The notes below the pieces were generated by a model, which was given only the letters and a program-made list of their open reading frames with translations, did not search any database and was not told the origin of the DNA. This document shows positions 1,223 through 32,684 of a DNA stretch of 32,684 bases, piece by piece. The DNA is from Escherichia phage Wphi: sequence record AY135739; one strand, given 5' to 3'. Position 1 is the first letter of the stretch; every line of letters starts with the position of its first letter. A program made the position numbers and the translations under genes.

Positions 1223-2994
1223 CAGTAAAACTCCAGAATGGTGGATGTCAGCGGTGTGCTGATACCGGCGGTGAGTGGCTCATTTAACAGGGCGTGCATG
1301 GTCGCCCAGGCGAGGTCGGCGTGGCTGGCTTCCTCGCTGCGGCTGGCCTCATAGGTGGCGCTGCGTCCGCTGCTGGTCATGGTCTTGCGGATAGCCATAA
1401 ACGAGCTGGTGATGTCGGTGGCGCTGACGTCATATTCCAGACAGCCACGGCGGATGACGTCTTTTGCCTTGAGCACCATTGCGGTTTTCATTTCCGGCGT
1501 GTAGCGGATATCGCGCGCGGCGGGATAGAACGAGCGCACGAGCTGGAACACGCCGACACCGAGGCCGGTGGCATCAATACCGATGTATTCGACGTTGTAT
1601 TTTTCGGTGAGTTTGCGGATGGATTCCGCCTGAGTGGCAAAGTCCATGCCTTTCCACTGGTGACGCTCAAGTATTCTGAATTTGCCACCGGCCACCACCG
1701 GCGGTGCCAGTACCACGCATCCGGCGCTGTCGCCACGGTGTGACGGGTCGTAACCAATCCAGACCGGGCGGGAGCCGAACGGATTGGCGGCAAACGGCGC
1801 ATAGTCTTCCCATTCTTCCAGCGTGTCGACCATGCAGCGTTGCAGCTCCTCGAACGGGAATACCGACGCCTTGTCGTCAACAAATTCACACATGAACAGG
1901 TTTTTAAAATCGTCGGCGCTGTTTTCGCGTTTAAGCTGCTCAATGTCGAACAATGTGCAGCCACCTTTCAGGGCGTCCTCAATGGTGACAATCTGCCGCC
2001 ACTGGCCGTCCGCACAGAGAAGACCTCCGGCAAGGGCGTTATGACTGACGTCGATTTCCACGCGTTCGGCGGCGCTGGCGCGTCCCCGGTTAAACAGTTC
2101 ACCGGACCAGAACGGATAGGCGTCGTGCGCCAGCGTGGACGGGGTGGAGAAATAGGTCGAGCGCAGGTGACTCTGTGAGGCCATACCTGATGCCACCTTA
2201 CGCAGTACCTGAAAATTCGGGATCCAGAAAATCTCGTCGACGTACAGGTCGCCGTTATGGCTCTGTGCGGTGTTGGAGTTGGTGCCGAGAAAAATCAGTT
2301 TTGCGCCGTTATTGCCCAGGACAATCGGGTCACCGGTCAGGTCAACGTCAACCAGCCGGGCAAAGGCGATGATGTATTCACGGAACACATACGCCTGCGT
2401 TTTACTGGCCGACAGAAAAATCTGGTTATGACCGGTTTTCAGGGCGCGCAGCAGCGCCTCGCGGGAAAAATAAAACGTCGCGCCAATCTGGCGGGATTTC
2501 AGGATATCGCGGATGCGGTGCTCAAGCCCGGCGCGATACCAGTGCAACTGATATTCGAAAGACTGCTCAAAGAAAATCTGCTCCAGCTTTTCGATGGCCT
2601 CGTCACTGAAAAAATTCTTTTTCGGTTTGCGACGCCCGCCTTTGTTGCGGTTAGCGACGTTCGGATTAAGGTCTGCCTCGTTGCCGGTCTGACTGTAACG
2701 GTTGACCCGTGCCAGTCGTTCAATCTGGCGTCCGAGCAGGTCAATTTCCTTGAAGTCACCGCCGGTTTTCTGCGGTTTGATGATGAGCTGGGTCAGCCGC
2801 GCTTCCAGACTCATTTCGACACGGCTGATGGGGGCAACGCTGTCCCAGCCGTCGCGCTGTTTCCAGCTCTGCACCGTCGGGCGTTTCATCTGCAACATGG
2901 CGGCAATCTGCGGCACGGAAAACCCCTGCCAGTACAGCAGCGCCGCCTGACGACGCGGGTCGTGTAAAAGAGTGGTGTCTGTGGTGATGGTCAT
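1222..2994 (-). CDS. P: terminase large (ATPase) subunit
   Basis: ORF track gives 636 aa from 3132; I place the start at the internal ATG at 2992-2994 (MTITTDTTLL...), giving about 590 aa as expected for P2 gpP; large terminase position next to portal. Confidence 0.88.
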   Translation of the reverse strand: MTITTDTTLLHDPRRQAALLYWQGFSVPQIAAMLQMKRPTVQSWKQRDGWDSVAPISRVEMSLEARLTQLIIKPQKTGGDFKEIDLLGRQIERLARVNRYSQTGNEADLNPNVANRNKGGRRKPKKNFFSDEAIEKLEQIFFEQSFEYQLHWYRAGLEHRIRDILKSRQIGATFYFSREALLRALKTGHNQIFLSASKTQAYVFREYIIAFARLVDVDLTGDPIVLGNNGAKLIFLGTNSNTAQSHNGDLYVDEIFWIPNFQVLRKVASGMASQSHLRSTYFSTPSTLAHDAYPFWSGELFNRGRASAAERVEIDVSHNALAGGLLCADGQWRQIVTIEDALKGGCTLFDIEQLKRENSADDFKNLFMCEFVDDKASVFPFEELQRCMVDTLEEWEDYAPFAANPFGSRPVWIGYDPSHRGDSAGCVVLAPPVVAGGKFRILERHQWKGMDFATQAESIRKLTEKYNVEYIGIDATGLGVGVFQLVRSFYPAARDIRYTPEMKTAMVLKAKDVIRRGCLEYDVSATDITSSFMAIRKTMTSSGRSATYEASRSEEASHADLAWATMHALLNEPLTAGISTPLTSTILEFY

Positions 2995-3167
2995 GAATAC
3001 CTCGCCGTGATGAATCCATGGCAAGGCTACTGAGTCGCGCCCCGCGATTCGGTAAGGTGCTGTTGTGGCAGTGATAAGCCATCCGGGACTGATGGCGGAG
3101 GATGCGCATCGTCGGGAAACTGATGCCGACATGTGACTCCTCTAATCACTATTCAGGACTCCTGACA
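2995..3167. promoter_or_regulatory. divergent late promoter region (P_P leftward / P_O rightward) expected by P2 synteny
   Basis: 173-bp non-coding gap between divergently transcribed P and O; exact -10/-35 or Ogr dyad not confidently identified by eye. Confidence 0.35.
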
Positions 3168-4022
3168 ATGGCAAAAAAAGTCTCAAAATTCTTTCGTATC
3201 GGCGTTGAGGGTGACACCTGTGACGGGCGTGTCATCAGTGCGCAGGATATTCAGGAAATGGCCGAAACCTTTGACCCGCGAGTCTATGGTTGCCGCATTA
3301 ACCTGGAACATCTGCGCGGCATCCTGCCTGACGGTATTTTTAAGCGTTATGGCGATGTGGCCGAACTGAAGGCCGAAAAGATTGACGATGATTCGGCGCT
3401 GAAAGGCAAATGGGCGCTGTTTGCGAAAATCACCCCGACCGATGACCTTATCGCGATGAACAAGGCCGCGCAGAAGGTCTATACCTCAATGGAAATTCAG
3501 CCGAACTTTGCCAACACCGGCAAATGTTATCTGGTGGGGCTGGCCGTCACCGATGACCCGGCAAGCCTCGGCACGGAATACCTGGAATTCTGCCGCACGG
3601 CAAAACACAACCCCCTGAACCGCTTCAAATTAAGCCCTGAAAACCTGATTTCAGTGGCAACGGCGGTTGAGCTGGAATTTGAAGACCTGCCTGAAACCGT
3701 GTTCACAGCCCTGACCGAAAAGGTGAAATCCATTTTTGGCCGCAAACAGGCCAGCGATGACGCCCGTCTGAATGACGTGCATGAAGCGGTGACCGCTGTC
3801 GCTGAGCATGTGCAGGAAAAACTGAGCGCCACTGAGCAGCGCCTTGCTGAGATGGAAACCGCCTTTTCCGCACTTAAGCAGGATGTGACTGACAGGGCGG
3901 ATGAAACCAGTCAGGCATTCACCCGCCTGAAAAACAGTCTCGACCACACCGAAAGTCTGACCCAGCAGCGCCGCAGCAAAGCCACCGGCGGTGGCGGTGA
4001 CGCCCTGATGACGAACTGCTGA
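3168..4022 (+). CDS. O: capsid scaffolding protein
   Basis: Internal ATG at 3168 (MAKKVSKFF...) gives 284 aa, the size of P2 gpO; lies between terminase and major capsid gene. Confidence 0.85.
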   Translation: MAKKVSKFFRIGVEGDTCDGRVISAQDIQEMAETFDPRVYGCRINLEHLRGILPDGIFKRYGDVAELKAEKIDDDSALKGKWALFAKITPTDDLIAMNKAAQKVYTSMEIQPNFANTGKCYLVGLAVTDDPASLGTEYLEFCRTAKHNPLNRFKLSPENLISVATAVELEFEDLPETVFTALTEKVKSIFGRKQASDDARLNDVHEAVTAVAEHVQEKLSATEQRLAEMETAFSALKQDVTDRADETSQAFTRLKNSLDHTESLTQQRRSKATGGGGDALMTNC

Positions 4023-4080
4023 CCGGCGTCAGTCAGTCCGGGAAAACCTTCACGATTAACCCTTAATTTCAGGAAAAACT

Positions 4081-5154
4081 ATGCGCCAGGAAACCCGCTT
4101 TAAATTTAATGCCTACCTGTCCCGTGTTGCCGAACTGAACGGCATCGACGCCGGTGATGTGTCGAAAAAATTCACCGTTGAACCGTCGGTCACCCAGACC
4201 CTGATGAACACCATGCAGGAGTCCTCTGACTTTCTGACCCGGATCAACATTGTGCCGGTCAGCGAAATGAAAGGGGAAAAAATTGGTATTGGTGTCACCG
4301 GCTCCATCGCCAGCACCACCGACACCGCCGGTGGCACCGAGCGTCAGCCGAAGGACTTCTCGAAGCTGGCGTCAAACAAGTACGAATGCGACCAGATTAA
4401 CTTCGATTTTTATATCCGCTACAAAACGCTGGACCTGTGGGCGCGTTATCAGGATTTCCAGCTCCGTGTCCGTAACGCCATTATCAAACGCCAGTCCCTT
4501 GATTTAATCATGGCCGGTTTTAACGGCGTGAGGCGTGCCGAAACCTCTGACCGCAGCAGTAACCAGATGCTGCAGGATGTGGCGGTCGGCTGGCTGCAGA
4601 AATACCGCAATGAAGCCCCGGCGCGCGTGATGAGCAAGGTCACTGACGAGGAAGGTCACACGACCTCTGAGGTCATCCGCGTGGGTAAGGGGGGTGATTA
4701 TGCCAGCCTCGATGCACTGGTGATGGATGCGACCAACAACCTGATTGAGCCGTGGTATCAGGAAGACCCTGACCTTGTGGTGATTGTGGGGCGTCAGCTG
4801 CTGGCGGACAAATATTTCCCCATCGTCAACAGGGAGCAGGACAACAGCGAAATGCTGGCCGCTGACGTCATCATCAGCCAGAAACGCATCGGTAACCTGC
4901 CGGCGGTACGCGTCCCGTACTTCCCGGCGGATGCGATGCTCATCACGAAGCTGGAAAACCTGTCCATCTACTACATGGATGACAGCCATCGCCGCGTGAT
5001 TGAGGAAAACCCGAAACTCGACCGCGTGGAGAACTACGAGTCAATGAACATTGATTACGTGGTGGAAGACTACGCCGCCGGTTGTCTGGTGGAAAAAATT
5101 AAGGTCGGTGATTTCTCCACACCGGCTAAAGCGACCGCAGAGCCGGGAGCGTAA
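4081..5154 (+). CDS. N: major capsid protein
   Basis: 357-aa ORF in P2 gpN position and size; follows scaffold gene. Confidence 0.9.
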   Translation: MRQETRFKFNAYLSRVAELNGIDAGDVSKKFTVEPSVTQTLMNTMQESSDFLTRINIVPVSEMKGEKIGIGVTGSIASTTDTAGGTERQPKDFSKLASNKYECDQINFDFYIRYKTLDLWARYQDFQLRVRNAIIKRQSLDLIMAGFNGVRRAETSDRSSNQMLQDVAVGWLQKYRNEAPARVMSKVTDEEGHTTSEVIRVGKGGDYASLDALVMDATNNLIEPWYQEDPDLVVIVGRQLLADKYFPIVNREQDNSEMLAADVIISQKRIGNLPAVRVPYFPADAMLITKLENLSIYYMDDSHRRVIEENPKLDRVENYESMNIDYVVEDYAAGCLVEKIKVGDFSTPAKATAEPGA

Positions 5155-5157
5155 CCG

Positions 5158-5901
5158 ATGACGAGTCCCGCACAGCGCCACATGATGCGGGTCTCGGCAG
5201 CGATGACCGCGCAGCGGGAAGCCGCCCCGCTGCGACATGCAACTGTCTATGAGCAGATGCTGGTTAAGCTCGCCGCAGACCAGCGCACACTGAAAGCGAT
5301 TTATTCAAAAGAGCTTAAGGCCGCGAAAAAACGCGAACTGCTGCCGTTCTGGTTGCCGTGGGTGAACGGCGTGCTGGAGCAGGGCAAAGGTGCACAGGAT
5401 GACATTCTGATGACGGTCATGCTGTGGCGTCTGGATACCGGCGATATTGCCGGTGCGCTGGAGATTGCCCGTTATGCCCTGAAGTACGGTCTGACCATGC
5501 CGGGTAAACACCGCCGCACCCCGCCGTACATGTTCACCGAGGAGGTGGCGCTTGCGGCCATGCGCGCCCACGCTGCCGGTGAGTCTGTGGATACCCGCCT
5601 GCTGACGGAGACCCTTGCACTGACCGCCACGGCAGACATGCCTGATGAAGTGCGCGCAAAGCTGCACAAAATCACCGGTCTGTTTCTGCGTGACGCTGGT
5701 GATGCCGCCGGTGCGCTGGCTCACCTGCAACGTGCGACACAGCTCGACTGTCAGGCAGGCGTCAAAAAAGAGATTGAACGACTGGAGCGGGAGCTGAAAC
5801 CGAAGCCGGAGCCGCAGCCCAAAGCGGCCACCCGCGCCCTGCGTAAGACCCGGAGCGTGACACCGGCAAAACGTGGACGCCCGAAAAAGAAAGCCAGTTA
5901 A
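5158..5901 (+). CDS. M: terminase small (endonuclease) subunit
   Basis: 247-aa ORF directly after N, matching P2 gpM position and size; basic K/R-rich C-terminus. Confidence 0.85.
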   Translation: MTSPAQRHMMRVSAAMTAQREAAPLRHATVYEQMLVKLAADQRTLKAIYSKELKAAKKRELLPFWLPWVNGVLEQGKGAQDDILMTVMLWRLDTGDIAGALEIARYALKYGLTMPGKHRRTPPYMFTEEVALAAMRAHAAGESVDTRLLTETLALTATADMPDEVRAKLHKITGLFLRDAGDAAGALAHLQRATQLDCQAGVKKEIERLERELKPKPEPQPKAATRALRKTRSVTPAKRGRPKKKAS

Positions 5902-6000
5902 CAACCGAATGCGCCCCGCGCCAGGGCGGCACGCCGGTCAGTGAGGGTGAATCACCTGACGCTGTACCGGCGTCCACCGCCCGACTTTTCAGAGGTAGTC

Positions 6001-11860: not shown

Positions 11861-13870
11861 ATGAGCACAAAATTCAAAACCGTTATCACCACTGCCGGTG
11901 CAGTAAAGCTGGCAGCGGCAACCGCGCCGGGAGGGCGGAAGGTCAACATTACCACGATGGCCGTCGGGGATGGCGGTGGTAAATTGCCTGTCCCGGATGC
12001 CGGACAGACCGGGCTTATCCACGAAGTCTGGCGACATGCGCTGAACAAAATCAGCCAGGACAAACGAAACAGTAATTATATTATCGCAGAGCTGGTTATT
12101 CCGCCGGAGGTGGGCGGTTTCTGGATGCGAGAGCTTGGCCTGTACGATGATGCGGGAACGTTAATTGCCGTGGCGAACATGGCCGAAAGTTATAAACCTA
12201 CCCTTGCCGAAGGCTCAGGGCGTTCGCAGACCTGCCGCATGGTCATCATCGTCAGCAGTGTGGCCTCAGTGGAGCTGACCATTGACACCACAACGGTGAT
12301 GGCGACGCAGGATTACGTTGATGACAAAATTGCAGAGCATGAACAGTCACGACGTCACCCGGATGCCTCGCTGACCGCAAAAGGTTTTACTCAGTTAAGC
12401 AATGCGACCAACAGCACGTCTGAAACACTGGCCGCAACGCCGAAAGCGGTTAAGGCCGCATATGACCTTGCTAACGGGAAATATACCGCACAGGACGCCA
12501 CCACCGCGCGAAAAGGCCTTGTCCAGCTCAGTAGCGCGACTAACAGCACGTCTGAAACGCTCGCCGCAACACCAAAAGCCGTTAAGACGGTAATGGATGA
12601 AACGAACAAGAAAGCGCCATTAAACAGCCCTGCACTGACCGGAACGCCAACGACGCCAACTGCGCGACAGGGAACGAATAATACTCAGATCGCAAACACG
12701 GCTTTCGTTATGGCCGCGATTGCCGCCCTTGTAGACTCGTCGCCTGACGCACTGAATACGCTGAACGAGCTGGCGGCGGCGCTGGGCAATGACCCGAATT
12801 TTGCTACCACCATGACTAATGCGCTTGCGAGTAAGCAACCGAAAGATGCCACTTTGACGGCGCTGGCGGGGCTTGCTACTGCGGCAGACAGGTTTCCGTA
12901 TTTTACGGGGAATGATGTTGCCAGCCTGGCGACCCTGACAAAAGTCGGGCGGGATATTCTGGCTAAATCGACCGTTGCCGCCGTTATCGAATATCTCGGT
13001 TTGCAGGAAACGGTAAACAGGGCCAGGAACGCGGTGCAAAAGAATGGCGATATCTTGTCCGGCGGAATTACTTTTGAAAACGACTCAATCCTTGCCTGGA
13101 TTCGAAATACTGACTGGGCGAAGATTGGATTTAAAAATGATGCCGATGGTGACGCTGATTCATACATGTGGTTTGAAACGGGGGATAACGGCAATGAATA
13201 TTTCAAATGGAGAAGCCGCCAGAGTACCACAACAAAAGACCTGATGACGCTGAAATGGGATGCACTAAATATTCTTGTTAATGCCGTCATTAATGGCTGT
13301 CTTGGAGTTGGTACGACGAATGCACTAGGTGGTAGCTCTATTGTCCTTGGTGATAATGATACCGGATTTAAACAGAATGGAGACGGTATTCTTGATGTTT
13401 ATGCTAACAGTCAGCGTGTATTCCGTTTTCAGAATGGAGTGGCTATTGCTTTTAAAAATATTCAGGTAGGGGATAGTAAAAAGTTCTCGCTATCCAGCTC
13501 TAACACATCCACGAAGAATATTACCTTTAATTTATGGGGTGCTTCCAACCGTCCAGTGGTTGCAGAGTTAGGCGATGAGTCCGGATGGCATTTCTATAGC
13601 CAGCGAAATACAGATAACTCGGTAATATTTGCTGTTAACGGTCAGATGCAACCCAGCAACTGGGGAAATTTTGATTCCCGCTATGTGAAAGATGTTCGCC
13701 TGGGTACGCGAGTTGATCAATTGATGGCGCGAGGTGGTCGTTATGAAAAAGCCGGACACACGATTACCGGATTAAGAATCATTGGTGAAGTTGATGGCGA
13801 TGATGAAGCCATCGTCAGGCCAATACAAAAATACATCAATGGCACATGGTATATCGTCGCACAGGTGTAA
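11861..13870 (+). CDS. H: tail fibre protein
   Basis: 669-aa ORF after the baseplate genes; internal repeated motif NSTSETLAATPKAVK; AT-rich C-terminal third (putative receptor-binding part). Confidence 0.85.
   Translation: MSTKFKTVITTAGAVKLAAATAPGGRKVNITTMAVGDGGGKLPVPDAGQTGLIHEVWRHALNKISQDKRNSNYIIAELVIPPEVGGFWMRELGLYDDAGTLIAVANMAESYKPTLAEGSGRSQTCRMVIIVSSVASVELTIDTTTVMATQDYVDDKIAEHEQSRRHPDASLTAKGFTQLSNATNSTSETLAATPKAVKAAYDLANGKYTAQDATTARKGLVQLSSATNSTSETLAATPKAVKTVMDETNKKAPLNSPALTGTPTTPTARQGTNNTQIANTAFVMAAIAALVDSSPDALNTLNELAAALGNDPNFATTMTNALASKQPKDATLTALAGLATAADRFPYFTGNDVASLATLTKVGRDILAKSTVAAVIEYLGLQETVNRARNAVQKNGDILSGGITFENDSILAWIRNTDWAKIGFKNDADGDADSYMWFETGDNGNEYFKWRSRQSTTTKDLMTLKWDALNILVNAVINGCLGVGTTNALGGSSIVLGDNDTGFKQNGDGILDVYANSQRVFRFQNGVAIAFKNIQVGDSKKFSLSSSNTSTKNITFNLWGASNRPVVAELGDESGWHFYSQRNTDNSVIFAVNGQMQPSNWGNFDSRYVKDVRLGTRVDQLMARGGRYEKAGHTITGLRIIGEVDGDDEAIVRPIQKYINGTWYIVAQV
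12404..12588 (+). repeat. intragenic direct repeat (two roughly 50-bp copies 132 bp apart) inside H
   Basis: Near-identical copies starting at 12404 and 12536, in frame, encoding ATNSTSETLAATPKAVK twice; also mirrored as a repeated peptide in the antisense ORF 12391..12609. Confidence 0.6.
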
Positions 13871-14616: not shown

Positions 14617-15516
14617 ATGAGTGGTATTCGTATAACTCAGGCTATTGATAACAATCAGATTTTAGTAAATGTAAATACTTTTAATTATAGTGTTAATCCC
14701 TATCCACTCAAATGTCCTGACCCAAATTGCTCTGCTCATTTGGTGTATGTCAAAAGCCATATTCGTCGGAGTTTTAATAAAACCTTGCATATCCCCGCCT
14801 TCTTTAGACTGGAAAAAAATTTCACGCATGACAAATTATGTCAGTATGGAACTTCAGGATTGAATACAATTTATGCAAGTGATTCCAGTCATGATATCAG
14901 CCGTGCGCTTGCCACAGGTAATAATATATTCCGTATACATATACTCGATGAAGATGATATCTCTAAATTAAGCAGAAAAGCTGCAGCTATGCAGGCAAAT
15001 CCACCTTCTGATACTACAGACCGCGTTTATGTCAAGAGAGGTCGGAAAGCCCCCTATGTGAAGAACATGGATAGCTTACGGGAGATCTATGAATATGGAA
15101 AAGCTCACCCCAACAAGAGAAACAGCATAAAAATTGTTACTGGAACAAGTACTGTAACGTGGTCTGATTTTTTCTATGAAACAACGCAGTTAGAACGATT
15201 GTCAACTTACCTCCAGAAAGTAAAAATAGCTCAGGTTGCTGTAATTATGAAAGTGCATGTGGCGAGAATCCCTATGGCGAAATTTAATTATCGACACTTC
15301 ATTGAAGGTTCGCCAATGAGGATAAAAGGGGGCTTTAATATATATCCTACGATTCAATTAGGAAATGTTACTCCAAAATTATTTCCGTTGAGTAGCATTG
15401 TCATGGTACTCGGTAAATTTACTATTCCAACAAATAGAAAAATGATAATGGATCCAACATTTGAGCGTGAAGTCAGAACCATAGTTTCTAGTGAAGAGCA
15501 AGTGCTAATTCTTTGA
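14617..15516 (+). CDS. hypothetical protein, accessory (moron) gene in the Z/fun slot between G and FI
   Basis: 299-aa ORF with strong RBS (GGAGGAGTA-ATG); markedly AT-rich versus flanking tail genes; flanked by 215-bp and 319-bp non-coding gaps; no family recognised. Confidence 0.7.
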   Translation: MSGIRITQAIDNNQILVNVNTFNYSVNPYPLKCPDPNCSAHLVYVKSHIRRSFNKTLHIPAFFRLEKNFTHDKLCQYGTSGLNTIYASDSSHDISRALATGNNIFRIHILDEDDISKLSRKAAAMQANPPSDTTDRVYVKRGRKAPYVKNMDSLREIYEYGKAHPNKRNSIKIVTGTSTVTWSDFFYETTQLERLSTYLQKVKIAQVAVIMKVHVARIPMAKFNYRHFIEGSPMRIKGGFNIYPTIQLGNVTPKLFPLSSIVMVLGKFTIPTNRKMIMDPTFEREVRTIVSSEEQVLIL

Positions 15517-22138: not shown

Positions 22139-22219
22139 AGTGTTTCTTTTATCTGTTTGTTTTATAAGGGTAATTTAACTAAAATGGCACCATCAACAAA
22201 ACCGGAAGAGGTGCTCGCG

Positions 22220-22438
22220 ATGTTTCATTGTCCTTTATGCCAGCATGCCGCACATGCGCGTACAAGCCGCTATATCACTGACACGACAAAAGAGCGTTAT
22301 CATCAGTGCCAGAACGTGAATTGCAGTGCCACGTTCATCACTTATGAGTCGGTACAGCGATACATCGTGAAGCCGGGAGAAGTCCACGCCGTAAGGCCGC
22401 ACCCGTTGCCGTCAGGGCAGCAAATTATGTGGATGTGA
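22220..22438 (+). CDS. ogr: late gene transcriptional activator, Cys4 zinc-finger
   Basis: Internal ATG at 22220 gives 72 aa MFHCPLCQHAAHARTSRY...CQNVNC with a C-x2-C...C-x4-C motif; GGAAGAGG RBS; matches P2 Ogr size and position after D. Confidence 0.85.
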   Translation: MFHCPLCQHAAHARTSRYITDTTKERYHQCQNVNCSATFITYESVQRYIVKPGEVHAVRPHPLPSGQQIMWM

Positions 22439-22711: not shown

Positions 22712-23692
22712 TTATAACGTCACTCCGCCTTTTAGAGGATTCAGCGCGACGGCATTTTGCAGGTAGTCAGGCGCAAGGTGCGCATAGGCCATCGTCTGCT
22801 GAATGCTCGCATGTCCCAGAATCTGTTGCAGTGCGATTATATTGCCCCCATTCATCATGAAATGGCTTGCGAATGTATGCCGCAGGATGTGGGTTGCCTG
22901 ATTGGGTGGTATATCTGGCTTCACTCTGCGTAAAATCCCGCAAAACTTCTCATAATCAACTTTGAATAATTTAGCGCTGGCCTCCTCTTTAACTTTTTTC
23001 TCCAGTTCCTCAGAAATCGGCACGGTTCGCTTTTTACCGTTTTTGGTTTTCAGGAAGGTAACCCTGCAATTTGTAATCTGTGCTGGTTTTAGCGTGGCAA
23101 CTTCCGTCCATCTTCCTCCAGTGCTCAGACATAAAAGTGCGACAAGTAAGTCATCACCAGCCAAAACATTTAACAGTTTTTCGATTTCTGCTTTTTCCAG
23201 GAACGTCATTTCAGGGTTGGCCTCCGCCAGTGGCGGCAGTCCGTGAATTGGGTGTTGCCCGGAAAATTCATCCAATTGAATTAATTTTGTGAACATGCCG
23301 GATAATCGGTACATGTCACGGTTTATCGTTGCGGCACTGATACCATCACGTAGTCGCATGGAACGATAATCCATCAAAGCTCTTTTGCTCATCCGGCTCA
23401 CTGGTATATCACCTATGCCGCTGATGGTTTTGAGCAGATGATTAAACTCTTTTGTTCCATGCTCGTGGTTTTGCCCGTGATATTTCCACCAGATGTCCAG
23501 CAACTCACTCAAAGTTCGGCGATCTGCTCGCTGACCTGCCCATTCTTTCTGGCTGGCGTAGGCGATTGTGTATCGCTCAAATGCTACAGCCTCAGCTTTT
23601 CTTTCAAATTTCCTGCGGATGCGTTTTCCGTCGCGACCGCGAGGTCTAATGTCCACTTCATAGCGTCCATCATCGAGCTTCTTAATTGACAT
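22712..23692 (-). CDS. int: tyrosine integrase (P2-type)
   Basis: Start placed at ATG 23690-23692 (MSIKKLDDGRYEVDIRP...) with GAGGG RBS, 326 aa; the ORF-track start at 23722 (336 aa) is the alternative; C-terminal ...HILRHTFASHFMMNGGNIIALQQILGHASIQQTMAYAHL... is the tyrosine recombinase catalytic region. Confidence 0.85.
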   Translation of the reverse strand: MSIKKLDDGRYEVDIRPRGRDGKRIRRKFERKAEAVAFERYTIAYASQKEWAGQRADRRTLSELLDIWWKYHGQNHEHGTKEFNHLLKTISGIGDIPVSRMSKRALMDYRSMRLRDGISAATINRDMYRLSGMFTKLIQLDEFSGQHPIHGLPPLAEANPEMTFLEKAEIEKLLNVLAGDDLLVALLCLSTGGRWTEVATLKPAQITNCRVTFLKTKNGKKRTVPISEELEKKVKEEASAKLFKVDYEKFCGILRRVKPDIPPNQATHILRHTFASHFMMNGGNIIALQQILGHASIQQTMAYAHLAPDYLQNAVALNPLKGGVTL

Positions 23693-23761
23693 AAGAAAGC
23701 CCTCTGACGCTGTGTTCACCATCTTGGTAACAAATGGTGAAAATGTAATGTTTATAGAGTG

Positions 23762-25964: not shown

Positions 25965-26236
25965 GTATTCGTATCGAAATTGGCGAACGTTATGTCGTTA
26001 CCAGTGACAGCTTTCAGTTTATTCTCCACGAGAAAAAGAGAGCGGAAAGCGGTAAAAACGCCGGTCAGGAATGGCTGGCGGTGGTTGGTTATTACCCGAA
26101 ATTAAGCCAGCTCGTTTCCGGCCTGATGCATCACGATATTCTGACCGGAAGCGCAAAGTCTTTTGCTGATTTAAACGCGCAGGTTGAGCAACTCAGCAAG
26201 CGTTGTTCAGAGGCTTTTGGCTCATATGGCCGTTAA
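25961..26236 (+). CDS. hypothetical early protein (P2 orf83 position)
   Basis: 91-aa ORF, ATGA overlap with the preceding gene; 3' end overlaps the A start. Confidence 0.45.
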   Translation: MSIRIEIGERYVVTSDSFQFILHEKKRAESGKNAGQEWLAVVGYYPKLSQLVSGLMHHDILTGSAKSFADLNAQVEQLSKRCSEAFGSYGR

Positions 26237-28511
26237 AGCCTCCGGGCGTTTTGTCCCTCCGTCAGCATTTGCCGCAGGCACCGGTAAGGCGTTTACCGGT
26301 GCTTATGCATGGAACGCGCCACGCGAGGCTGTCGGGCGCGAAAGACCCCTTACACGTGACGAGATGCGTCAGGTGCAAGGTGTTTTATCCACGATTAACC
26401 GCCTGCCTTACTTTTTGCGCTCGCTGGTTACTTCACGCTATGACTACATCCGGCGCAATAAAAGCCCGGTGCACGGGTTTTATTTCCTTACATCCACTTT
26501 TCAGCGTCGTTTATGGCCGCGCATTGAGCGCGTGAATCAGCGCCATGAAATGAACACCGACGCGTCGTTGCTGTTTCTGGCAGAGCGTGACCATTATGCG
26601 CGCCTGCCTGGAATGAATGACAAGGAGCTGAAAAAGTTTGCTGCCCGTATCTCATCGCAGCTTTTCATGATGTATGAGGAACTCTGCGATGCATGGGTTG
26701 ATGCTCATGGCGAAAAAGAATCGCTGTTTACGGATGAGGCGCAGACTCACCTGTATGGTCATGTTGCTGGCGCTGCACGTGCTTTCAATATTTCCCCGCT
26801 CTACTGGAAAAAATACCGTAAAGGGCAGATGACCACGAGGCAGGCATATTCTGCCATTGCCCGCCTGTTTAACGATGAGTGGTGGACTCATCAGCTTAAA
26901 GGCCAGCGTATGCGCTGGCATGAGGCGTTACTGATTGCTGTCGGGGAGGTCAATAAAGACCGTTCTCCTTATGCCAGTAAACATGCCATTCGTGATGTGC
27001 GTGCGCGCCGCCAGGCAAATCTGGAATTTCTTAAATCGTGTGACCTTGAAAACAAGGAAACCGGCGAGCGCATCGACCTTATCAGTAAGGTGATGGGCAG
27101 TATTTCTAATCCAGAAATTCGCCGGATGGAGCTGATGAACACCATCGCCGGTATTGAGCGTTACGCCGCCGCAGAGGGTGATGTGGGGATGTTTATCACG
27201 CTGACCGCGCCGTCAAAGTATCACCCGACACGTCAGGTCAGAAAAGGCGAAAGTAAAACCGTCCAGCTAAATCACGGCTGGAACGATGAGGCATTTAATC
27301 CAAAGGATGCGCAGCGTTATCTCTGCCGTATCTGGAGCCTGATGCGCACGGCATTCAAGGATAATGATTTACAGGCCTACGGTTTGCGTGTTGTTGAACC
27401 ACACCACGACGGAACGCCGCACTGGCATATGATGCTTTTTTGTAATCCACGCCAGCGTAACCAGATTATTGAAATCATGCGTCGCTATGCGCTCAAAGAG
27501 GATGGCGACGAAAGAGGAGCCGCGCGAAACCGTTTTCAGGCAAAACACCTTAACCGGGGCGGTGCTGCGGGATATATCGCGAAATACATCTCAAAAAACA
27601 TCGACGGCTATGCACTGGATGGTCAGCTCGATAATGATACCGGCAGGCTGCTGAAAGACACTGCAGCGGCTGTTACCGCATGGGCGTCTACGTGGCGCAT
27701 TCCGCAATTTAAAACGGTTGGCCTGCCGACAATGGGGGCTTACCGTGAGCTACGCAAATTGCCTCGCGGCGTCAGCATTGCTGATGAGTTTGACGAACGC
27801 GTCGAGGCTGCACGCGCCGCCGCAGACAGTGGTGATTTTGCGCTGTATATCAGCGCGCAGGGCGGGGCAAATGTCCCGCGCGATTGTCAGACTGTCAGGG
27901 TCGCCCGTAGCCCGTCGGATGACGTTAACGAGTACGAGGAAGAAGTCGAGAGAGTGGTAGGCATTTACGCGCCGCATCTCGGCGCGCGTCATATTCATAT
28001 CACCAGAACGACGGACTGGCGCATTGTGCCGAAAGTTCCGGTCGTTGAGCCTTTGACTTTAAAAAGCGGCATCGCCGCGCCTCGGAGTCCTGTCAATAAC
28101 TGTGGAAAGCCTGCCAGCAGTGATAATTCGTTACCGGCTCCCACGCCTTCTGAGCACGCCGCAGCAGTGCTTAATCTGGTTGATGACGGTGTTATCGAAT
28201 GGAATGACCCGGAGGTCGTGAGGGCGCTCAGGGGCGCATTAAAACACGGGCTGAGAACACCAAATCGTCAGCAGAGAAACGGAAGCCCGTTAAAAACACA
28301 TGAAATTGCACCGTCGGCCAGACTGACCCGGTCGGAACGAATGCAAATTACCCGTATCCGCGTTGACCTCGCTCAGAACGGTATCAGGCCGCAGCGATGG
28401 GAGCTTGAGGCGCTGGCGCGTGGCGCGACCGTAAATTATGACGGGAAAAAATTCACGTATCCAGTCGCTGATGAGTGGCCGGGATTCTCAACAGTAATGG
28501 AGTGGACATGA
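26226..28511 (+). CDS. A: rolling-circle replication initiator endonuclease
   Basis: Start placed at ATG 26226 (MAVKASGRFVPPS...), 761 aa as for P2 gpA; contains HUH-like HWHMMLF and catalytic-tyrosine region GYIAKYISKN. Confidence 0.88.
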   Translation: MAVKASGRFVPPSAFAAGTGKAFTGAYAWNAPREAVGRERPLTRDEMRQVQGVLSTINRLPYFLRSLVTSRYDYIRRNKSPVHGFYFLTSTFQRRLWPRIERVNQRHEMNTDASLLFLAERDHYARLPGMNDKELKKFAARISSQLFMMYEELCDAWVDAHGEKESLFTDEAQTHLYGHVAGAARAFNISPLYWKKYRKGQMTTRQAYSAIARLFNDEWWTHQLKGQRMRWHEALLIAVGEVNKDRSPYASKHAIRDVRARRQANLEFLKSCDLENKETGERIDLISKVMGSISNPEIRRMELMNTIAGIERYAAAEGDVGMFITLTAPSKYHPTRQVRKGESKTVQLNHGWNDEAFNPKDAQRYLCRIWSLMRTAFKDNDLQAYGLRVVEPHHDGTPHWHMMLFCNPRQRNQIIEIMRRYALKEDGDERGAARNRFQAKHLNRGGAAGYIAKYISKNIDGYALDGQLDNDTGRLLKDTAAAVTAWASTWRIPQFKTVGLPTMGAYRELRKLPRGVSIADEFDERVEAARAAADSGDFALYISAQGGANVPRDCQTVRVARSPSDDVNEYEEEVERVVGIYAPHLGARHIHITRTTDWRIVPKVPVVEPLTLKSGIAAPRSPVNNCGKPASSDNSLPAPTPSEHAAAVLNLVDDGVIEWNDPEVVRALRGALKHGLRTPNRQQRNGSPLKTHEIAPSARLTRSERMQITRIRVDLAQNGIRPQRWELEALARGATVNYDGKKFTYPVADEWPGFSTVMEWT

Positions 28512-28789
28512 TGGCAAAAATTCACGAGGTAAAGCTGCACGCAAAATATTTCGACCTTGTGCTGGAAGGAAAGAAACGCGCAGAGTTTCGGAAAAATGAC
28601 CGTAATTATGAGCGCGGGGACACGTTGATTTTGCATGAATGGGTACAGGGTGTGTTTACGGGGCGAAAGGTTGAAGCCCGGATAACAGATGTTACTGACC
28701 TGTCAGACTGGCTGGAAGATTATGTCTTGCTAAGTATTGAGCTGCTTAATACAGGCGTATATGAGATTGTGAACTGGAAAGAAACTTAG
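28508..28789 (+). CDS. hypothetical protein, ASCH/DUF3850-like (P2 orf91 position)
   Basis: ATG at 28508 overlaps the A stop (ATGA); about 93 aa MMAKIHEVKLHAKYFDLVLEGKKRAEFRKNDRNYERGD... Confidence 0.55.
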   Translation: MMAKIHEVKLHAKYFDLVLEGKKRAEFRKNDRNYERGDTLILHEWVQGVFTGRKVEARITDVTDLSDWLEDYVLLSIELLNTGVYEIVNWKET

Positions 28790-28828
28790 TGAGCCGTGGC
28801 TTGGTATTCAGAAATTAATCATGAAATT

Positions 28829-29023
28829 ATGCATCAGCTCGGCCTTGCTGTTATGTATGAACCAGAGACGGGGATGTCTGGCGGGGCAATGGTTGCCACG
28901 GATGGAGCATGGAACTATTCAGATGAACAGATGGAGCCGTGCACAGCAAAACGGGTGGCTTGGATAATGCACAGAATACCAGGCGAGATACCCGCACCCA
29001 TAAAACTAAAAATATCAAGCTGA
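28829..29023 (+). CDS. questionable small ORF at the accessory-island boundary
   Basis: ORF-track start 28796 is GTG; first ATG at 28829 has no convincing RBS; 64 aa, no recognisable features. Confidence 0.2.
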   Translation: MHQLGLAVMYEPETGMSGGAMVATDGAWNYSDEQMEPCTAKRVAWIMHRIPGEIPAPIKLKISS

Positions 29024-29418: not shown

Positions 29419-30357
29419 ATGCCAACTGTAGTTTCACTTTTTTCTGGATGTGGTGGTTCTGATGCGGGAGTTTTGAACGCAGGTTTCAATGTGCTTATGG
29501 CAAATGATATTTTGCCTTACGCAAGGGACGTTTACTTAGAAAACCATCCTGAAACTGACTACATTTTGGGCGATATCTCAGGGCTCCAGTCGTTCCCTTC
29601 TGCTGAGTTGCTCATCGGATGCTATCCTTGCCAAGGATTTAGTCAAGGTGGGGCAAGGAAGGCAGATAGAAAGATTAATACACTATATTTAGAGTTTGCC
29701 CGTGCTTTGAGTAAAATTAAGCCAAAAGCATTCATTGTAGAGAATGTCTCTGGTATGGTAAGGCGTAACTTTGAGCATTTATTAAAGGATCAATTCAAAG
29801 TTTTCGAAGAAGCAGGTTATACAGTAAGCTCGCAAATTCTGAATGCGTCCCATTATGGGGTATCCCAAGATAGGAAGCGAATCTTTATCGTAGGAATACG
29901 AAAGGACTACGGTATTACATACAAATTTCCAAAACCAACACATGGTGATGGTTTGACACCATATTCCACAATTCGTGATGCTATTGGGCATATGCCTGTT
30001 TGGCCTGTTGGCGAGTTTTATGACGCCGATTTTCATTGGTATTATCTATCGCGAAACCGTAGGCAAGATTGGGATCAGATATCTAAAACAATTGTTGCAA
30101 ATCCTAGACATATGCCTCTACATCCAATAAGTCCAACATTAGAAAAATTGGGACCTGATAAGTGGCAATTTACTTCGGATGCACCAGCTCGTAGGTTTAG
30201 CTATCGAGAGGCTGCTATTTTACAAGGTTTTGGAGATTTAATTTTCCCAGAAACTGAACGGGCTTCTATTAATATGAAATATACTGTGGTAGGTAATGCA
30301 GTACCGCCTCCATTGTTTGAGGCGGTTGCTAGAAACCTTCCAGATTTATGGGATTAA
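29419..30357 (+). CDS. DNA (cytosine-5)-methyltransferase
   Basis: 312 aa with C5-MTase motifs in canonical order: FSGCGG (motif I), PCQGFS (motif IV, catalytic Cys), ENV (motif VI), QDRKR (motif VIII), GNAVPPPL (motif X); AT-rich gene. Confidence 0.85.
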   Translation: MPTVVSLFSGCGGSDAGVLNAGFNVLMANDILPYARDVYLENHPETDYILGDISGLQSFPSAELLIGCYPCQGFSQGGARKADRKINTLYLEFARALSKIKPKAFIVENVSGMVRRNFEHLLKDQFKVFEEAGYTVSSQILNASHYGVSQDRKRIFIVGIRKDYGITYKFPKPTHGDGLTPYSTIRDAIGHMPVWPVGEFYDADFHWYYLSRNRRQDWDQISKTIVANPRHMPLHPISPTLEKLGPDKWQFTSDAPARRFSYREAAILQGFGDLIFPETERASINMKYTVVGNAVPPPLFEAVARNLPDLWD

Positions 30358-31391
30358 GCAGCGATCGCGCTGGAAGGATCAAGGATGATATCTAGATAGC
30401 TAATATTTTGACTGTGATCAATATTATCAGATGCTCTGGTTAAATTGATTAATCTTAGGCGATCAACAAAAATAGCATCGCCTAACTTATTTTTATGTGC
30501 CCACTCACCATCTATCCATCGTAGATCTTGAGGTAAGAAATAATAAGTTGCCCATCGGTGAGCTACGGGGAATTTACTGTAGAGCATCGCAGGTGAGGCC
30601 TCAAGCTGCTTCGCTTCCCACTCTTCTTGAGAACAGCCACACTGAACAAAAGAAATAGGGATGGCATCTCGTTGATCTCCCATTGGATGCCAGGCAATTA
30701 TGTCAAGGCCTCCGTCACCACTATTTCCTCGACTGAAATCTCGTTCTTTGAAGTTCGCTGTGCAACGGATATCGGAAGCAATACTCTTAAATTTATTATA
30801 TAGAGTTCCAGTGTAAGGGGCCGCTTGACCACCAGAAGCCCAGCATGCTTTTATTATGCTACCGCTAGGCATTAGGCTTTCAAAAATAGGTAAACTAATT
30901 AGTTCAAAACTGCGCGTTATCTCTCTTCTGCTCATTATGTTGACATATTTTATGTTAGCACAGATTAGTAAAGCTAAATATAGTCTTTCTAAATGTTCCA
31001 GTGGCTTTTCTGATATATCACGTAACTCTACAGTATCGTTGTCTTCTGATAAAGTAAAAGGGTAACTATCCCCAAATAAATCAATGCGTTGTCGTATGAA
31101 GCCTATCGCATAGCTCCACTTTCTGTCAGTATATGCTCGACTAACACTTCGTTTTGTTCTCTTGCGTACAGGCGTATCATTTTCATCATCAACATCATAA
31201 ACGCCCTCTTCTTCTGCTTCATCTGTTTCAGCTAGTACTGCTTCGGGTTGAGCTTGCAGTGTGCTATATAGGTCTCCTCGACTGAATGACCTGTCGATAT
31301 TAGTTAAGGCCAATATCTCAATATAATCAGCCCATAAATAAGGCTCATTAGAAGGCATTGAATCAAGATTTGTAATCATAATCTCAATCAT
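30354..31391 (-). CDS. hypothetical protein, second gene of leftward operon, convergent with the methyltransferase
   Basis: Start assigned to ATG 31389-31391 abutting GGGAGG (alternative ATG 31377-31379), about 345 aa; acidic tract ETDEAEEEGVYDVDDEND; stop codon overlaps the MTase stop (TTAA); AT-rich. Confidence 0.6.
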   Translation of the reverse strand: MIEIMITNLDSMPSNEPYLWADYIEILALTNIDRSFSRGDLYSTLQAQPEAVLAETDEAEEEGVYDVDDENDTPVRKRTKRSVSRAYTDRKWSYAIGFIRQRIDLFGDSYPFTLSEDNDTVELRDISEKPLEHLERLYLALLICANIKYVNIMSRREITRSFELISLPIFESLMPSGSIIKACWASGGQAAPYTGTLYNKFKSIASDIRCTANFKERDFSRGNSGDGGLDIIAWHPMGDQRDAIPISFVQCGCSQEEWEAKQLEASPAMLYSKFPVAHRWATYYFLPQDLRWIDGEWAHKNKLGDAIFVDRLRLINLTRASDNIDHSQNISYLDIILDPSSAIAA

Positions 31392-32457
31392 CCTCCCTTT
31401 TGCTTCTGATCTGATTTCTAATATTTTTTGACATCTCAAAAATTTCAGATGCAGCCTCTTCATGCTCTAATGTTAATTCTTTAGCTTTAAGTAGCATATC
31501 CCAAACTACTCTTAATTTAACACTAGCTGCGTTTAGTGCTTTATCTAATGCTTCTCTTTCTCCGCTGGTATATAGATATGCTTCATCCAAGTTTGAACTT
31601 TTCATGAGAATTTCAATTGCTTCGGGTTTCTCAACCACTGCTGCAATATCTTTTATTCTTCGAGACTCACCGATGATGGTTCTACCTTGTTGGTCAGGCA
31701 CAAAAAACCAAGAGAATAAACGCTTAAGGTTTTCTTCATTTAAATTTGGGTCTAAAAAATCCTTTTTATCCTGTAGACCTAACCAGTTTGTGATTTTTGA
31801 ATATCCCAAAGCTGTGGTTATATATGAAAATTCCACGTCAGAAGCCTTCATGGGTAAATTAAAAAACTCATGGTCATGCGCGACTTCATATAAGTTCAGT
31901 GCAGTGAGAAGTGTTGCAACATAATGTGGTTTACTCCCAATCTCACGAGCCAGATTTTTTAATACTATCTCTTTAGGTTCATGTGAATAAAAAGTATCAC
32001 ATAACTCTTTAAGGTATTTGGCTTTAGATAATGAGTCCCATTCTTTGACCCCAGTTATATGACGATAACCGATATATCTCAGTACATCCTCTCGGTTTTC
32101 ATAAATGATGCAGGGAAGCTTCTTAGGTTTATTGGTAGTATCATCAATGATTTCTTGCACACCTTTAAGTTTTCTTTTTGGAGGAAGCAGATCTCCATTG
32201 AGCAACTTTACAGCAGCTAAGCGTCTGTTTCCCTCAACCACGATGTAGTTTCCATTGCTTTTTACTGCCAATAAAGGTTCTCCAGGAAAGTAACCTTGCT
32301 GACCGATTGATAGCATTAGATCGTGGACACTTTCGTCATCTAACATTTCCTCAATGACTGTTGCAGCGTTACTGGCATCATTGAGACGAAAGAAACGTGG
32401 GTTTTTAGGGTCAAAATCAAGCTTATTTGTCTCAATTTCTACGATTTTGTTATCCAT
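31384..32457 (-). CDS. ParB/Srx-fold (ParB N-terminal domain-like) protein
   Basis: Start assigned to ATG 32455-32457 with GAGG RBS about 5 nt upstream (357 aa; ORF-track maximum 401 aa); ParB-box-like FDPKNPRF and VVEGNRRLAAVKLL; overlaps downstream gene by 8 nt. Confidence 0.65.
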   Translation of the reverse strand: MDNKIVEIETNKLDFDPKNPRFFRLNDASNAATVIEEMLDDESVHDLMLSIGQQGYFPGEPLLAVKSNGNYIVVEGNRRLAAVKLLNGDLLPPKRKLKGVQEIIDDTTNKPKKLPCIIYENREDVLRYIGYRHITGVKEWDSLSKAKYLKELCDTFYSHEPKEIVLKNLAREIGSKPHYVATLLTALNLYEVAHDHEFFNLPMKASDVEFSYITTALGYSKITNWLGLQDKKDFLDPNLNEENLKRLFSWFFVPDQQGRTIIGESRRIKDIAAVVEKPEAIEILMKSSNLDEAYLYTSGEREALDKALNAASVKLRVVWDMLLKAKELTLEHEEAASEIFEMSKNIRNQIRSKREDD

Positions 32458-32684
32458 CTTAACCTCATGGGATGATGTAAATATCTTTTGGGGGATGCTT
32501 GATAAAACATCCATATTTGATCGTTTGCAGCGCATTTGATACATCGAAGTGTACAAAAATGCTGGGCATAACTCTGCATTAAAATGCATTCACATTCAAA
32601 GCACTATTTTCTCGTTGGACATTTAGCCTAAGAGAGTTTGGACGGCTTTTGGAATTGCATCAAAACCGACCCATGAAGCGGGCG

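Follow-up and report, generated by a model that had tools for sequence, protein, structure and literature searches.

Here we examine a ParB-like gene (positions 31384 to 32457, minus strand) in the genome of Escherichia phage Wphi, a stretch of 32,684 nucleotides (sequence record AY135739) that we refer to as the window. Judging from gene context and structural modeling, this gene most likely belongs to a phage-borne restriction system and not to DNA partition. The described system with which it must be compared first is PD-lambda-5, which was experimentally selected from E. coli ECOR7 and gives broad anti-phage protection (Vassallo et al., 2022; PMC9519451). Its authors called it a compact 'RM+Abi' system, combining restriction-modification (R-M) and abortive infection (Abi), and it needed a host with the mrr region deleted (PMC9519451), a requirement that implies active methylation. 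Protein A of PD-lambda-5, labeled 'ParB/HEPN', has about 440–500 aa, with a ParBc domain at aa 6–89 and weak DUF4145/HEPN signals near aa 390–500, and protein B is a Dam-like N6-adenine methyltransferase (MethyltransfD12, PF02086). Our literature searches found no publication on the mechanism of PD-lambda-5.

ParB-type cytidine triphosphate (CTP) switches are known to serve DNA segregation in ParB, nucleoid occlusion in Noc and gene silencing in KorB. In ParB, boxes I and II form the CTP pocket and box III, ENLQR, carries the hydrolysis residues. A 2025 survey describes the ParB CTPase fold as widespread, with unknown roles, and does not place the family of the window protein in a defense context (PMC12704722). 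Proteins of the ParB superfamily that join a nucleoside triphosphatase (NTPase) to a nuclease, SspE and DndI, read DNA modification to control cleavage (PMC11662687).

Comparison of the Wphi locus with described systems

The ParB-like gene is one of three that make up the cassette considered here:

31384 to 32457, minus strand: ParB-like protein, 357 aa, WP_000368931.1, with a ParB/Srx N-domain, a ParB-type helix-turn-helix (HTH) domain and a unique all-helical C-terminal region
30354 to 31391, minus strand: partner protein, 345 aa, WP_000570053.1, a predicted nuclease of the PD-(D/E)xK restriction-endonuclease fold
29419 to 30357, plus strand: HaeIII-like C5 cytosine DNA methyltransferase, 312 aa, WP_001143634.1 (Pfam DNA_methylase, PF00145, E = 9.9e-62)

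An earlier, sequence-only reading of this stretch had described the ParB-like gene as co-operonic with an unknown protein and adjacent to a methyltransferase, and both neighbors are indeed there. Twenty-four PADLOC PD-Lambda-5_A profiles match aa 1 to ~151 of the ParB-like protein, and distant family members are matched likewise; the matches end, with rare exceptions, near position 165 of profiles 430–590 positions long. The N-terminal ~150–165 aa, which span ParB boxes I–III, are specifically homologous between the two systems (best E = 2.5e-24, vs 0.02 for the generic ParB_N profile), and in both a ParB-N protein is combined with a DNA methyltransferase. The differences are as clear as the likenesses. 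PD-lambda-5 has two genes and the window cassette three. The C-terminal part of protein A is DUF4145/HEPN-like, whereas the 357-aa window protein has a ParB-type HTH and a helical tail and gave no HEPN or DUF4145 match in Pfam. Protein B is of the N6-adenine type, whereas the window methyltransferase is a C5 cytosine enzyme, and the presumed effector in the window is a separate PD-(D/E)xK-fold protein that is matched by no PADLOC model, distant members included. By these sequence comparisons, the cassette is not a member of PD-lambda-5.

The CTP clamps ParB, KorB and Noc are the best structural matches to the window protein over the N-terminal domain (NTD) and the HTH, and the pocket motifs of boxes I and II are kept. 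The window protein differs from them in having no ParA or KorA partner, in carrying GYRHITG in place of box III ENLQR, in its unrelated C-terminal domain, in its obligate partner nuclease, and in its location in a defense hotspot or in defense islands. With SspE, DndI, GmrSD and BrxU it would share the principle of a ParB-superfamily NTPase that acts together with a nuclease and either reads DNA modification or functions alongside it. The modifications concerned are phosphorothioate or modified cytosine, and one clade of the window pair (the ParB-like gene and its partner) directly follows dndC-D-E. Compared with SspE, DndI and GmrSD, the window protein has EGNRR in place of DGQQR and belongs to another branch of the superfamily (Foldseek E = 0.8 to DndI, 9jfl); the nuclease there is a fused HNH/DUF1524 domain, whereas here it is a separate PD-(D/E)xK protein, accompanied by a ParB-type HTH. 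DUF262 (PF03235), PF07510 and Menshen gave no matches for the window protein. A DndB identity was rejected: neither the window protein nor a dnd-linked member matches DndB (PF14072), and the gene follows dndE rather than preceding dndC. Profile searches of this kind had been suggested in the sequence-only reading, and their outcome is divided: DUF262 and DndB gave no match and Pfam ParB_N stayed below threshold, whereas the PD-Lambda-5_A match is strong.

Type II R-M systems resemble the cassette in joining a stand-alone HaeIII-like C5 methyltransferase to a restriction-endonuclease-fold protein in a convergent, tightly packed arrangement. Unlike their endonucleases, the window nuclease falls in no Pfam restriction-enzyme family, is encoded with a ParB-type protein wherever this can be checked, and, with that protein, also occurs beside phosphorothioation genes. 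The C proteins of R-M systems are small (~80–100 aa) Xre-type HTH proteins with C-box operators, in contrast to a 357-aa ParB fold, and we found no conserved operator upstream of the ParB-like gene. A further likeness is to protein A of PADLOC PDC-M38, whose profile positions 58–342 match aa 41–327 of the window protein (E = 6.5e-25), that is, the ParB-like core and part of the helical region; distant family members follow this pattern too. The 715-aa profile is twice as long, and its C-terminal half matches neither the ParB-like protein nor the partner. PDC-M38 is a computational candidate for which we found no published function. Literature searches returned no paper naming or testing the window cassette; Table S5A of Rousset et al. 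lists it merely as 'hypothetical + DNA_methylase' and another allele as 'DNA_methylase + hypothetical + ParBc'.

Motifs and predicted fold of the ParB-like protein

The longest open reading frame (ORF) covers 31384 to 32589 (401 aa). We place the start at 32457, giving 357 aa, because the homologue alignment, the RefSeq model WP_000368931.1 and a GAGG Shine-Dalgarno sequence 8 nt upstream agree on it, and the minus-strand gene is real, as had been read from the sequence. The following elements are recognized within it:

32392 to 32415, minus strand: box I, FDPKNPRF (aa 15–22), the equivalent of the ParB 'PNPxQPR' nucleotide-pocket motif
32212 to 32235, minus strand: box II, EGNRRLAA (aa 75–82; VVEGNRRLAAV is aa 73–83), the equivalent of the ParB GERRxRA phosphate-binding motif
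32050 to 32070, minus strand: GYRHITG (aa 130–136), a motif particular to this family, standing where ParB has box III (ENLQR)
31873 to 31974, minus strand: predicted ParB-type helix-turn-helix (aa ~162–195, LKNLAREIGSKPHYVATLLTALNLY), with model helices at 162–173 and 177–195
31387 to 31860, minus strand: helical C-terminal region (aa ~200–357), with a long helical hairpin at its end (300–324, 330–355)

Across 62 family members with 30–100% identity, D16, N19, P20 and R21 of box I are kept in 61–62, and E75, G76, N77, R78 and R79 of box II are invariant (62/62). Box II aligns with GERRLRA of H. pylori ParB, and with Noc, in a PDB sequence search. These are the two boxes on which the sequence-only reading had been built, and their near-invariance bears it out. 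Its further view that they form a site for both CTP/NTP binding and DNA nicking holds in its first half, since the same boxes make the CTP pocket of ParB; the nicking half goes back to older reports that are contested. The third motif is conserved to the same degree (G130, H133, I134 and G136 in 62/62 members, T135 in 60/62). From the order of the motifs and from what is generally known of ParB sequences, we infer that GYRHITG is the positional equivalent of box III, and because this invariant motif stands where ParB has ENLQR, the chemistry of hydrolysis may differ from that of ParB. Further along, I173, G174 and S175 of the HTH region are near-invariant across the family; the segment of the ParB-type HTH DNA-binding domain is also given as LAREIGSKPHYVATLLTALNLY.

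Generic profiles describe the protein weakly and could not by themselves have decided its fold. Pfam ParB_N (PF02195) scores 15.3 bits (E = 0.021), under its gathering cut-off of 26.3 bits, and TIGR00180 (parB_part) scores 30.5 bits (E = 2.8e-7), under a cut-off of 58.45 bits. PHROG families of ParB-like partition proteins match with E of 6e-9 and 3e-6, ParB/Noc matches in PDB sequence searches are marginal, and a precomputed PF02195 match is present on many homologues. Structural modeling is more decisive. In an AlphaFold2 model built with 40 homologues as input (mean predicted local distance difference test, pLDDT, 86.3), the top 24 PDB matches found by Foldseek are all ParB-family proteins without their C-terminal domain (KorB; Caulobacter, Myxococcus and Bacillus ParB; Noc; Spo0J), with E values of 3e-6 to 4e-3 over 214–290 alignment columns that take in the NTD and the DNA-binding domain; Spo0J aligned to the model across 158 residues. 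The model confirms a ParB/Srx fold bearing boxes I and II and, following this predicted N-terminal CTPase domain, a ParB-type HTH. Sequence and AlphaFold3 do not reliably predict the nucleotide specificity of ParB folds, according to the 2025 survey (PMC12704722).

The C-terminal region from aa ~200 to 357 is helical, with pLDDT of 90–97, and in the fold searches it gave non-specific helical-bundle matches only. It could be a dimerization or partner-binding module. The sequence-only reading had left some 270 residues after the boxes without a match; this stands for aa ~200–357 and not for aa ~95–200, which the model assigns to the ParB HTH domain.

The partner protein and the methyltransferase

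The start of the partner gene overlaps the end of the ParB-like gene by 8 nt. An alternative ATG at 31379 (341 aa) lies 4 nt past the stop of the ParB-like gene and may be the true start. The partner gave no match in Pfam, NCBIfam, PADLOC or PDB-sequence searches. Its predicted fold is that of a PD-(D/E)xK restriction endonuclease, with further fold matches to NucS, Can2, Cfr10I, Bse634I, HamA, McrC and others. The part of the sequence that concerns catalysis is:

30609 to 30719, minus strand: putative nuclease active-site segment, GDGGLD (aa 225–230), QCG (250–252) and K261, Mrr-like D...(Q)x..K with the lysine displaced to the next helix

Within the partner family, D230 and Q250 are conserved in 61/61 members, W258 and K261 in 60/61, and G228 in 59/61; D22 and E25 of the N-terminal helix are kept in 59/61. 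Taken together, D22, E25, D230, Q250 and K261 would form a variant PD-(D/E)xK constellation with a putative catalytic role.

The family comprises 1474 clusters at 50% identity, 440 of them at E ≤ 1e-30. The best 150 of the 1474 representatives are all stand-alone proteins, with no Rosetta-stone fusion of the partner to the ParB-like protein among them. A separate observation concerns an acidic insertion of ~35 residues (AVLAETDEAEEEGVYDVDDEND..., aa 47–84, positions 31140–31253), which is found in the E. coli, Citrobacter and Morganella versions. The AVLAETDEAEEEGVYDVDDEND insertion is absent from all other partner homologues and is modeled at pLDDT 62–64.

The methyltransferase gene is convergent with the partner gene, and the two stop codons overlap by 4 nt. 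The encoded protein aligns over its full length with M.HaeIII, target-recognition region included (E = 1.6e-48), and carries the motifs FSGCGG, PCQ and ENV. It is an active-looking enzyme by these sequence features, and its site is possibly short and GGCC-like, the similarity to HaeIII (GGCC) being a lead only. GATC is strongly depleted in the whole window (30 observed vs 129 expected, ratio 0.23), and GGCC is the second most depleted 4-base palindrome, with an observed/expected ratio of 0.66. We rejected site avoidance as a guide to the methyltransferase target, as the GGCC value is uninformative for a phage that encodes its own methyltransferase. GGCC is perhaps depleted in E. coli generally.

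Conservation of the gene pair and its neighbors

A scan of 100,044 species-representative genomes, with ORFs checked by profile searches, yielded 66 loci from Gamma-, Beta- and Alphaproteobacteria, Bacteroidota, Actinobacteria, Negativicutes, Acidobacteriota, Fibrobacteria and one bacterium of the candidate phyla radiation. The pair was found in at least 10 phylum- or class-level groups. In 59 of the 66 loci, the partner gene follows the ParB-like gene directly, downstream and on its strand, the other 7 being contig ends or degraded copies. Across Proteobacteria, identities are 55–67% for the ParB-like protein vs 41–55% for the nuclease. In the light of these sequence data, the ParB-like gene and the nuclease gene are an obligate, mobile two-gene module. 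No ParA was seen beside the pair in the window, or in the neighborhoods scanned and the annotated loci, which take in part of the neighbor ORFs of the 59 loci. Together with the AlphaFold2 and Foldseek results, this upholds the earlier view of a ParB fold that stands outside a partition context.

DNA-modification genes adjoin 50 of the 59 intact pairs (85%). A C5 methyltransferase lies within 1.1 kb of the pair in 36/59 loci; 30 of these 36 enzymes belong to the lineage of the window's enzyme (≥40% identity), 26 are convergent, 23 show a gap of at most 26 nt, and 10 have the same 4-nt overlap as the window. Both deep clades of the pair accompany this one methyltransferase lineage (60–98% identity). 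Close homologues (54–67% identity) occur on the Methylomonas DH-1 chromosome, in Dechloromonas, where the cassette adjoins a Tn7-like element, and in a P2-like prophage of Pectobacterium; in all three the order is ParB-like gene, ~304-aa gene, convergent C5 methyltransferase gene. The layout of the window is also kept around more distant homologues, 32–39% identical, from E. coli phage vB_EcoM-12474II and Pseudomonas phage D14A.

In 14 of the 59 loci, mostly in Bacteroidota, the genes upstream and co-directional are dndC (PAPS-reductase), dndD (SMC-like ATPase) and dndE, as identified with Pfam, and the pair sits at the 3' end of the operon, after dndE. These dnd-linked pairs form one clade in a neighbor-joining tree (loci L043, L047–L049, L053–L055, L057, L059, L060, L062, L063, L068 and L069). 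In the one dnd-linked locus that was scanned for it (L048, positions 4407–5996), dndE is part of a fusion with a HerA/FtsK-like ATPase similar to the C-terminus of DndH, and ORFs of ~520–530 aa occupy the position of this fusion in several others. An HNH_2 protein is encoded upstream of the pair, with no modification gene, in 5/59 loci, and there is no obvious neighbor in 4/59, two of them contig-limited.

Two single loci deserve mention. Vsr (very-short-patch repair) genes commonly accompany C5 methyltransferases, and in Methylomonas sp. DH-1 a 58-aa Vsr fragment (12669–12845 of locus L002) and a transposase lie just past the methyltransferase. In Yersinia phage L-413C (L008, 207–1199), a lone, C-terminally shortened ParB-like gene of a divergent allele (330 aa) occupies the slot between gpA and the portal gene. 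As neither a nuclease partner nor a methyltransferase is encoded beside it, this gene is probably a remnant.

Within E. coli, all 104 genomes that have the pair also carry the methyltransferase. The sole disrupted copy among them (E. coli JXZ9A32M, 2448–4676 of locus L076) has an IS5 element that splits the nuclease gene and leaves the methyltransferase and ParB-like genes intact, just as an R-M system would be expected to decay. In 36 of 5426 E. coli genomes, a methyltransferase gene at 93% nucleotide identity is found in the gpA-portal slot without the window's pair. At the one locus of these 36 that was inspected (L077, E. coli O145 RM10425-C1, 4001–7037), a divergent allele of the pair stands in the P2 slot, as it also does in phage vB_EcoM-12474II (L007, 204–3240). 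The methyltransferase at the E. coli O145 locus is 98% identical in aa sequence to that of the window, vs 32% for the ParB-like protein and 25% for the nuclease, and this contrast implies an abrupt recombination breakpoint where R meets M.

Proposed mechanism and alternatives

We propose that the three genes form a restriction-modification-like cassette, with a nuclease that acts on unmodified DNA when licensed by a ParB-type NTP switch, and we give this reading a probability of about 55%. The proposal builds on computed evidence, namely folds, motif conservation, gene coupling, synteny, hotspot location and the N-domain homology to PD-lambda-5 protein A. The HaeIII-like C5 methyltransferase would mark host and prophage DNA at a short site. 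The ParB-like protein would bind DNA via its HTH, with its nucleotide pocket (FDPxNPR/EGNRR) acting as the switch, either by closing into a sliding clamp as in ParB and KorB or by a modification-sensitive release as in DndI. On unmarked DNA, it would recruit or license the PD-(D/E)xK nuclease, to which it is translationally coupled, for cutting, and incoming unmodified phage DNA would be destroyed while self DNA is spared. The ParB-like/nuclease pair could then be regarded as a portable 'R' module, which in one mostly-Bacteroidota clade is attached to dndCDE instead of a methyltransferase. The binding and identity of the nucleotide, clamp or sliding behavior, nuclease activity, the reading of modification and the anti-phage phenotype are putative for this family. 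More tentatively, the cassette could represent a new restriction class, in which a nucleotide-gated clamp or sensor of the ParB type (NTD plus HTH) scans DNA and licenses a PD-(D/E)xK nuclease, with a module portable between 5-methylcytosine and phosphorothioate; that the scanner would be neither a helicase/translocase nor a DUF262 domain is put forward with the same reserve.

The sequence-only reading had suggested a sensor or effector of a defense system. The location of the gene in an anti-phage hotspot, the restriction-endonuclease-fold partner, an arrangement conserved across phyla and the kinship to PD-lambda-5 protein A all favor that suggestion, at the level of sequence and models. We refine it in one respect and do not overturn it: the ParB-like protein probably serves as the subunit that binds DNA and acts as the NTP switch, and the partner probably as the dedicated nuclease.

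Several observations weigh against our proposal. At the position of the canonical (D/E)xK lysine the partner has a glycine; the catalytic assignment is a provisional one for this reason, and activity would rely on the displaced K261. The replacement of ENLQR by GYRHITG makes the chemistry of the switch uncertain, and 9 of the 59 loci (two contig-limited) have no adjacent modification gene. The genome paper of E. coli W, whose prophage carries the cassette, terms this strain 'restriction minus', a judgment made on genomic grounds alone, from the lack of hsd, mcrBC and mrr. The arrangement of a C gene followed by an R gene, convergent with M, fits a controller role as well. A further complication is the combination of a 98%-identical methyltransferase with a 32%/25%-identical pair, since one methyltransferase with divergent pairs is hard to reconcile with a pair that reads the sequence recognized by that methyltransferase. 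Either one site or mark is read by both versions of the pair, or the pair senses modification irrespective of sequence, a behavior that would be more in line with a sliding sensor than with a classical Type II enzyme.

The layout just mentioned is the starting point for an explanation that we consider unlikely, in which the partner works as an ordinary Type II endonuclease matched to the methyltransferase, and the ParB-like protein controls transcription in the manner of a C-protein, KorB or DndB. Its HTH would bind an operator, perhaps as an NTP-dependent clamp, and would delay or limit the nuclease until methylation is established. The order of HTH protein then nuclease, convergent with M, resembles C-protein-controlled R-M systems such as Esp1396I. 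The top structural match, KorB, is a ParB-family CTP-dependent repressor, and one clade of the pair lies in dnd operons, which the ParB-superfamily protein DndB is reported to regulate (PMC10853773). The kinship of the N-domain with protein A of PD-lambda-5 nevertheless speaks against a purely regulatory role: protein A must carry the restriction/Abi function, being the sole non-methyltransferase protein of a working defense. It is also unusual for a dispensable controller to be better conserved than its nuclease, as the identities across Proteobacteria indicate, and to co-occur with it wherever this can be checked; no conserved operator-like palindrome was found upstream outside P2 backbones, and in dnd loci the pair closes the operon at its 3' end and does not adjoin the promoter. 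Quite unlikely, in our estimate, is an abortive, trigger-sensing arrangement, in which the pair is a toxin-like effector set off by a phage cue (an anti-restriction protein, a DNA end or modified DNA) and the methyltransferase is otherwise employed, for instance in shielding the phage genome from host restriction or as an antidote. That PD-lambda-5 was described as 'RM+Abi', that many cargo systems of P2 and P4 hotspots are abortive, and that 5 loci have an HNH_2 nuclease and no modification gene and 4 have neither would be in keeping with it. So would the pairing of one methyltransferase with very divergent pairs, which is expected if the pair does not read the site of the methyltransferase. 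Against it, modules of two chemically different kinds of modification adjoin 50 of 59 pairs, which is the signature of self-marking, and the conserved 4-nt overlaps of convergent stops with one methyltransferase lineage argue for a single functional unit.

It is also conceivable, if very unlikely, that the ParB N-domain is itself a nuclease, nickase or NTP-depleting enzyme and that the PD-(D/E)xK-fold partner is a non-catalytic recognition or scaffold subunit. The QCG of the partner and the missing lysine at the canonical (D/E)xK position would be consistent with this, and PD-lambda-5 protein A has no recognized nuclease domain apart from the weak HEPN/DUF4145 signals. Nicking and NTPase activities are reported for some ParB/Srx members, Osa and RK2 ParB (cited in PMC12839542 and PMC10853773). 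The nuclease activity of ParB domains is contested, though, and the nearest structural matches of the window protein are CTP clamps; moreover, the retention of D230, Q250 and K261 (60–61/61), along with acidic residues of the N-terminal helix, is typical of active variant PD-(D/E)xK sites. A canonical partition ParB, keeping the phage as a plasmid or segregating its DNA, is scarcely credible. The NTD-plus-HTH architecture is ParB-like and the weak TIGR00180 and PHROG 'ParB-like partition protein' matches point the same way, but TIGR00180 scores 30.5 against the required 58.45 bits, and P2-like phages integrate (integrase at 22712–23722; prophage at cpxP in E. coli W). We reject this identity on context, as no ParA was seen beside the pair in the window or in the related loci examined and the neighbor is a nuclease wherever this can be checked, in all 59 intact pairs. 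What Rousset et al. note in P2 hotspots as a 'putative plasmid partitioning system' consists of a StbA/Plasmid_stab_B cassette and is distinct from that of the window.

Our proposal of a licensed nuclease bears on several questions. A protein with the complete ParB arrangement of NTD and HTH is tied here to a nuclease of restriction-enzyme fold, in a family that is large and has no name. Should the cassette restrict DNA, it would offer a compact, three-gene, E. coli-native model for the control of a nuclease by a ParB-type nucleotide switch and a mechanistic handle on the unexplained PD-lambda-5. Defense-annotation tools would gain a model that they are missing (PADLOC would not call the cassette because it has no profile for the partner), and the 'restriction minus' label of the biotechnology strain E. 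coli W would have to be revised. The association of one methyltransferase with 25–32%-identical pairs raises the question of how self/non-self specificity is encoded. Should the new-class reading be true, the CTP-switch principle of ParB would extend from chromosome segregation and gene silencing into immunity.

Genomic setting

The 32,684-bp window is the genome of a P2-like phage, circularly permuted, and the following genes locate the cassette within it:

26184 to 28511, plus strand: P2 gpA replication endonuclease (Pfam Phage_GPA, E = 3e-122; also annotated in the E. coli W prophage), which bounds the hotspot on the left
188 to 1222, minus strand: portal gene, the right boundary of the hotspot across the circular permutation, with terminase, capsid, tail and lysis genes next to it
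22157 to 22438: Ogr
22712 to 23722: ORF at the annotated integrase position

The ParB-like gene lies between gpA and the portal gene. This cos-proximal slot holds old and tin in P2. It is a hotspot of anti-phage cargo in P2-like phages (PMC9122126, PMC9519451). The GC content of slot and cassette is 36–45% vs 52% for the phage, as expected for an acquired cassette. The final 4.3 kb of the window are 99.8% identical to a prophage that lies next to cpxP in E. coli W and in ~100 other complete E. coli genomes.

Scans for promoters and terminators gave no more sites than shuffled sequence. A search for operator- or parS-like sites upstream of the ParB-like gene gave one imperfect palindrome only: an ATGCA-rich repeat (32572–32601), ~120 nt upstream of the start, contains the imperfect near-palindrome TGCATTAAAATGCA at 32575–32588. 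The ATGCA-rich motif is common to P2-like loci (upstream regions of L006, L010 and L026) and absent from chromosomal and other non-P2 copies of the cassette, and for this reason TGCATTAAAATGCA is probably part of the P2 backbone near cos and not a cassette operator. No operator-like palindrome conserved upstream of the ParB-like gene was found outside P2 backbones.

Directly after gpA, at the position of P2 orf91, the plus strand encodes a DUF3850/ASCH (PUA-like) protein (28475–28789), which is followed by a 75-aa ORF (28796–29023, plus strand). DUF3850 is reported to be a frequent fusion partner of ParB-CTPase folds in phages (PMC12704722); in the window, the DUF3850/ASCH gene is a separate gene of the P2 backbone. 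At the second P2 cargo hotspot (the Z/fun position), between tail-fiber and sheath genes, lies a 299-aa ORF (14617–15516, plus strand) that gave no match in Pfam or PADLOC and may be another accessory or defense gene.

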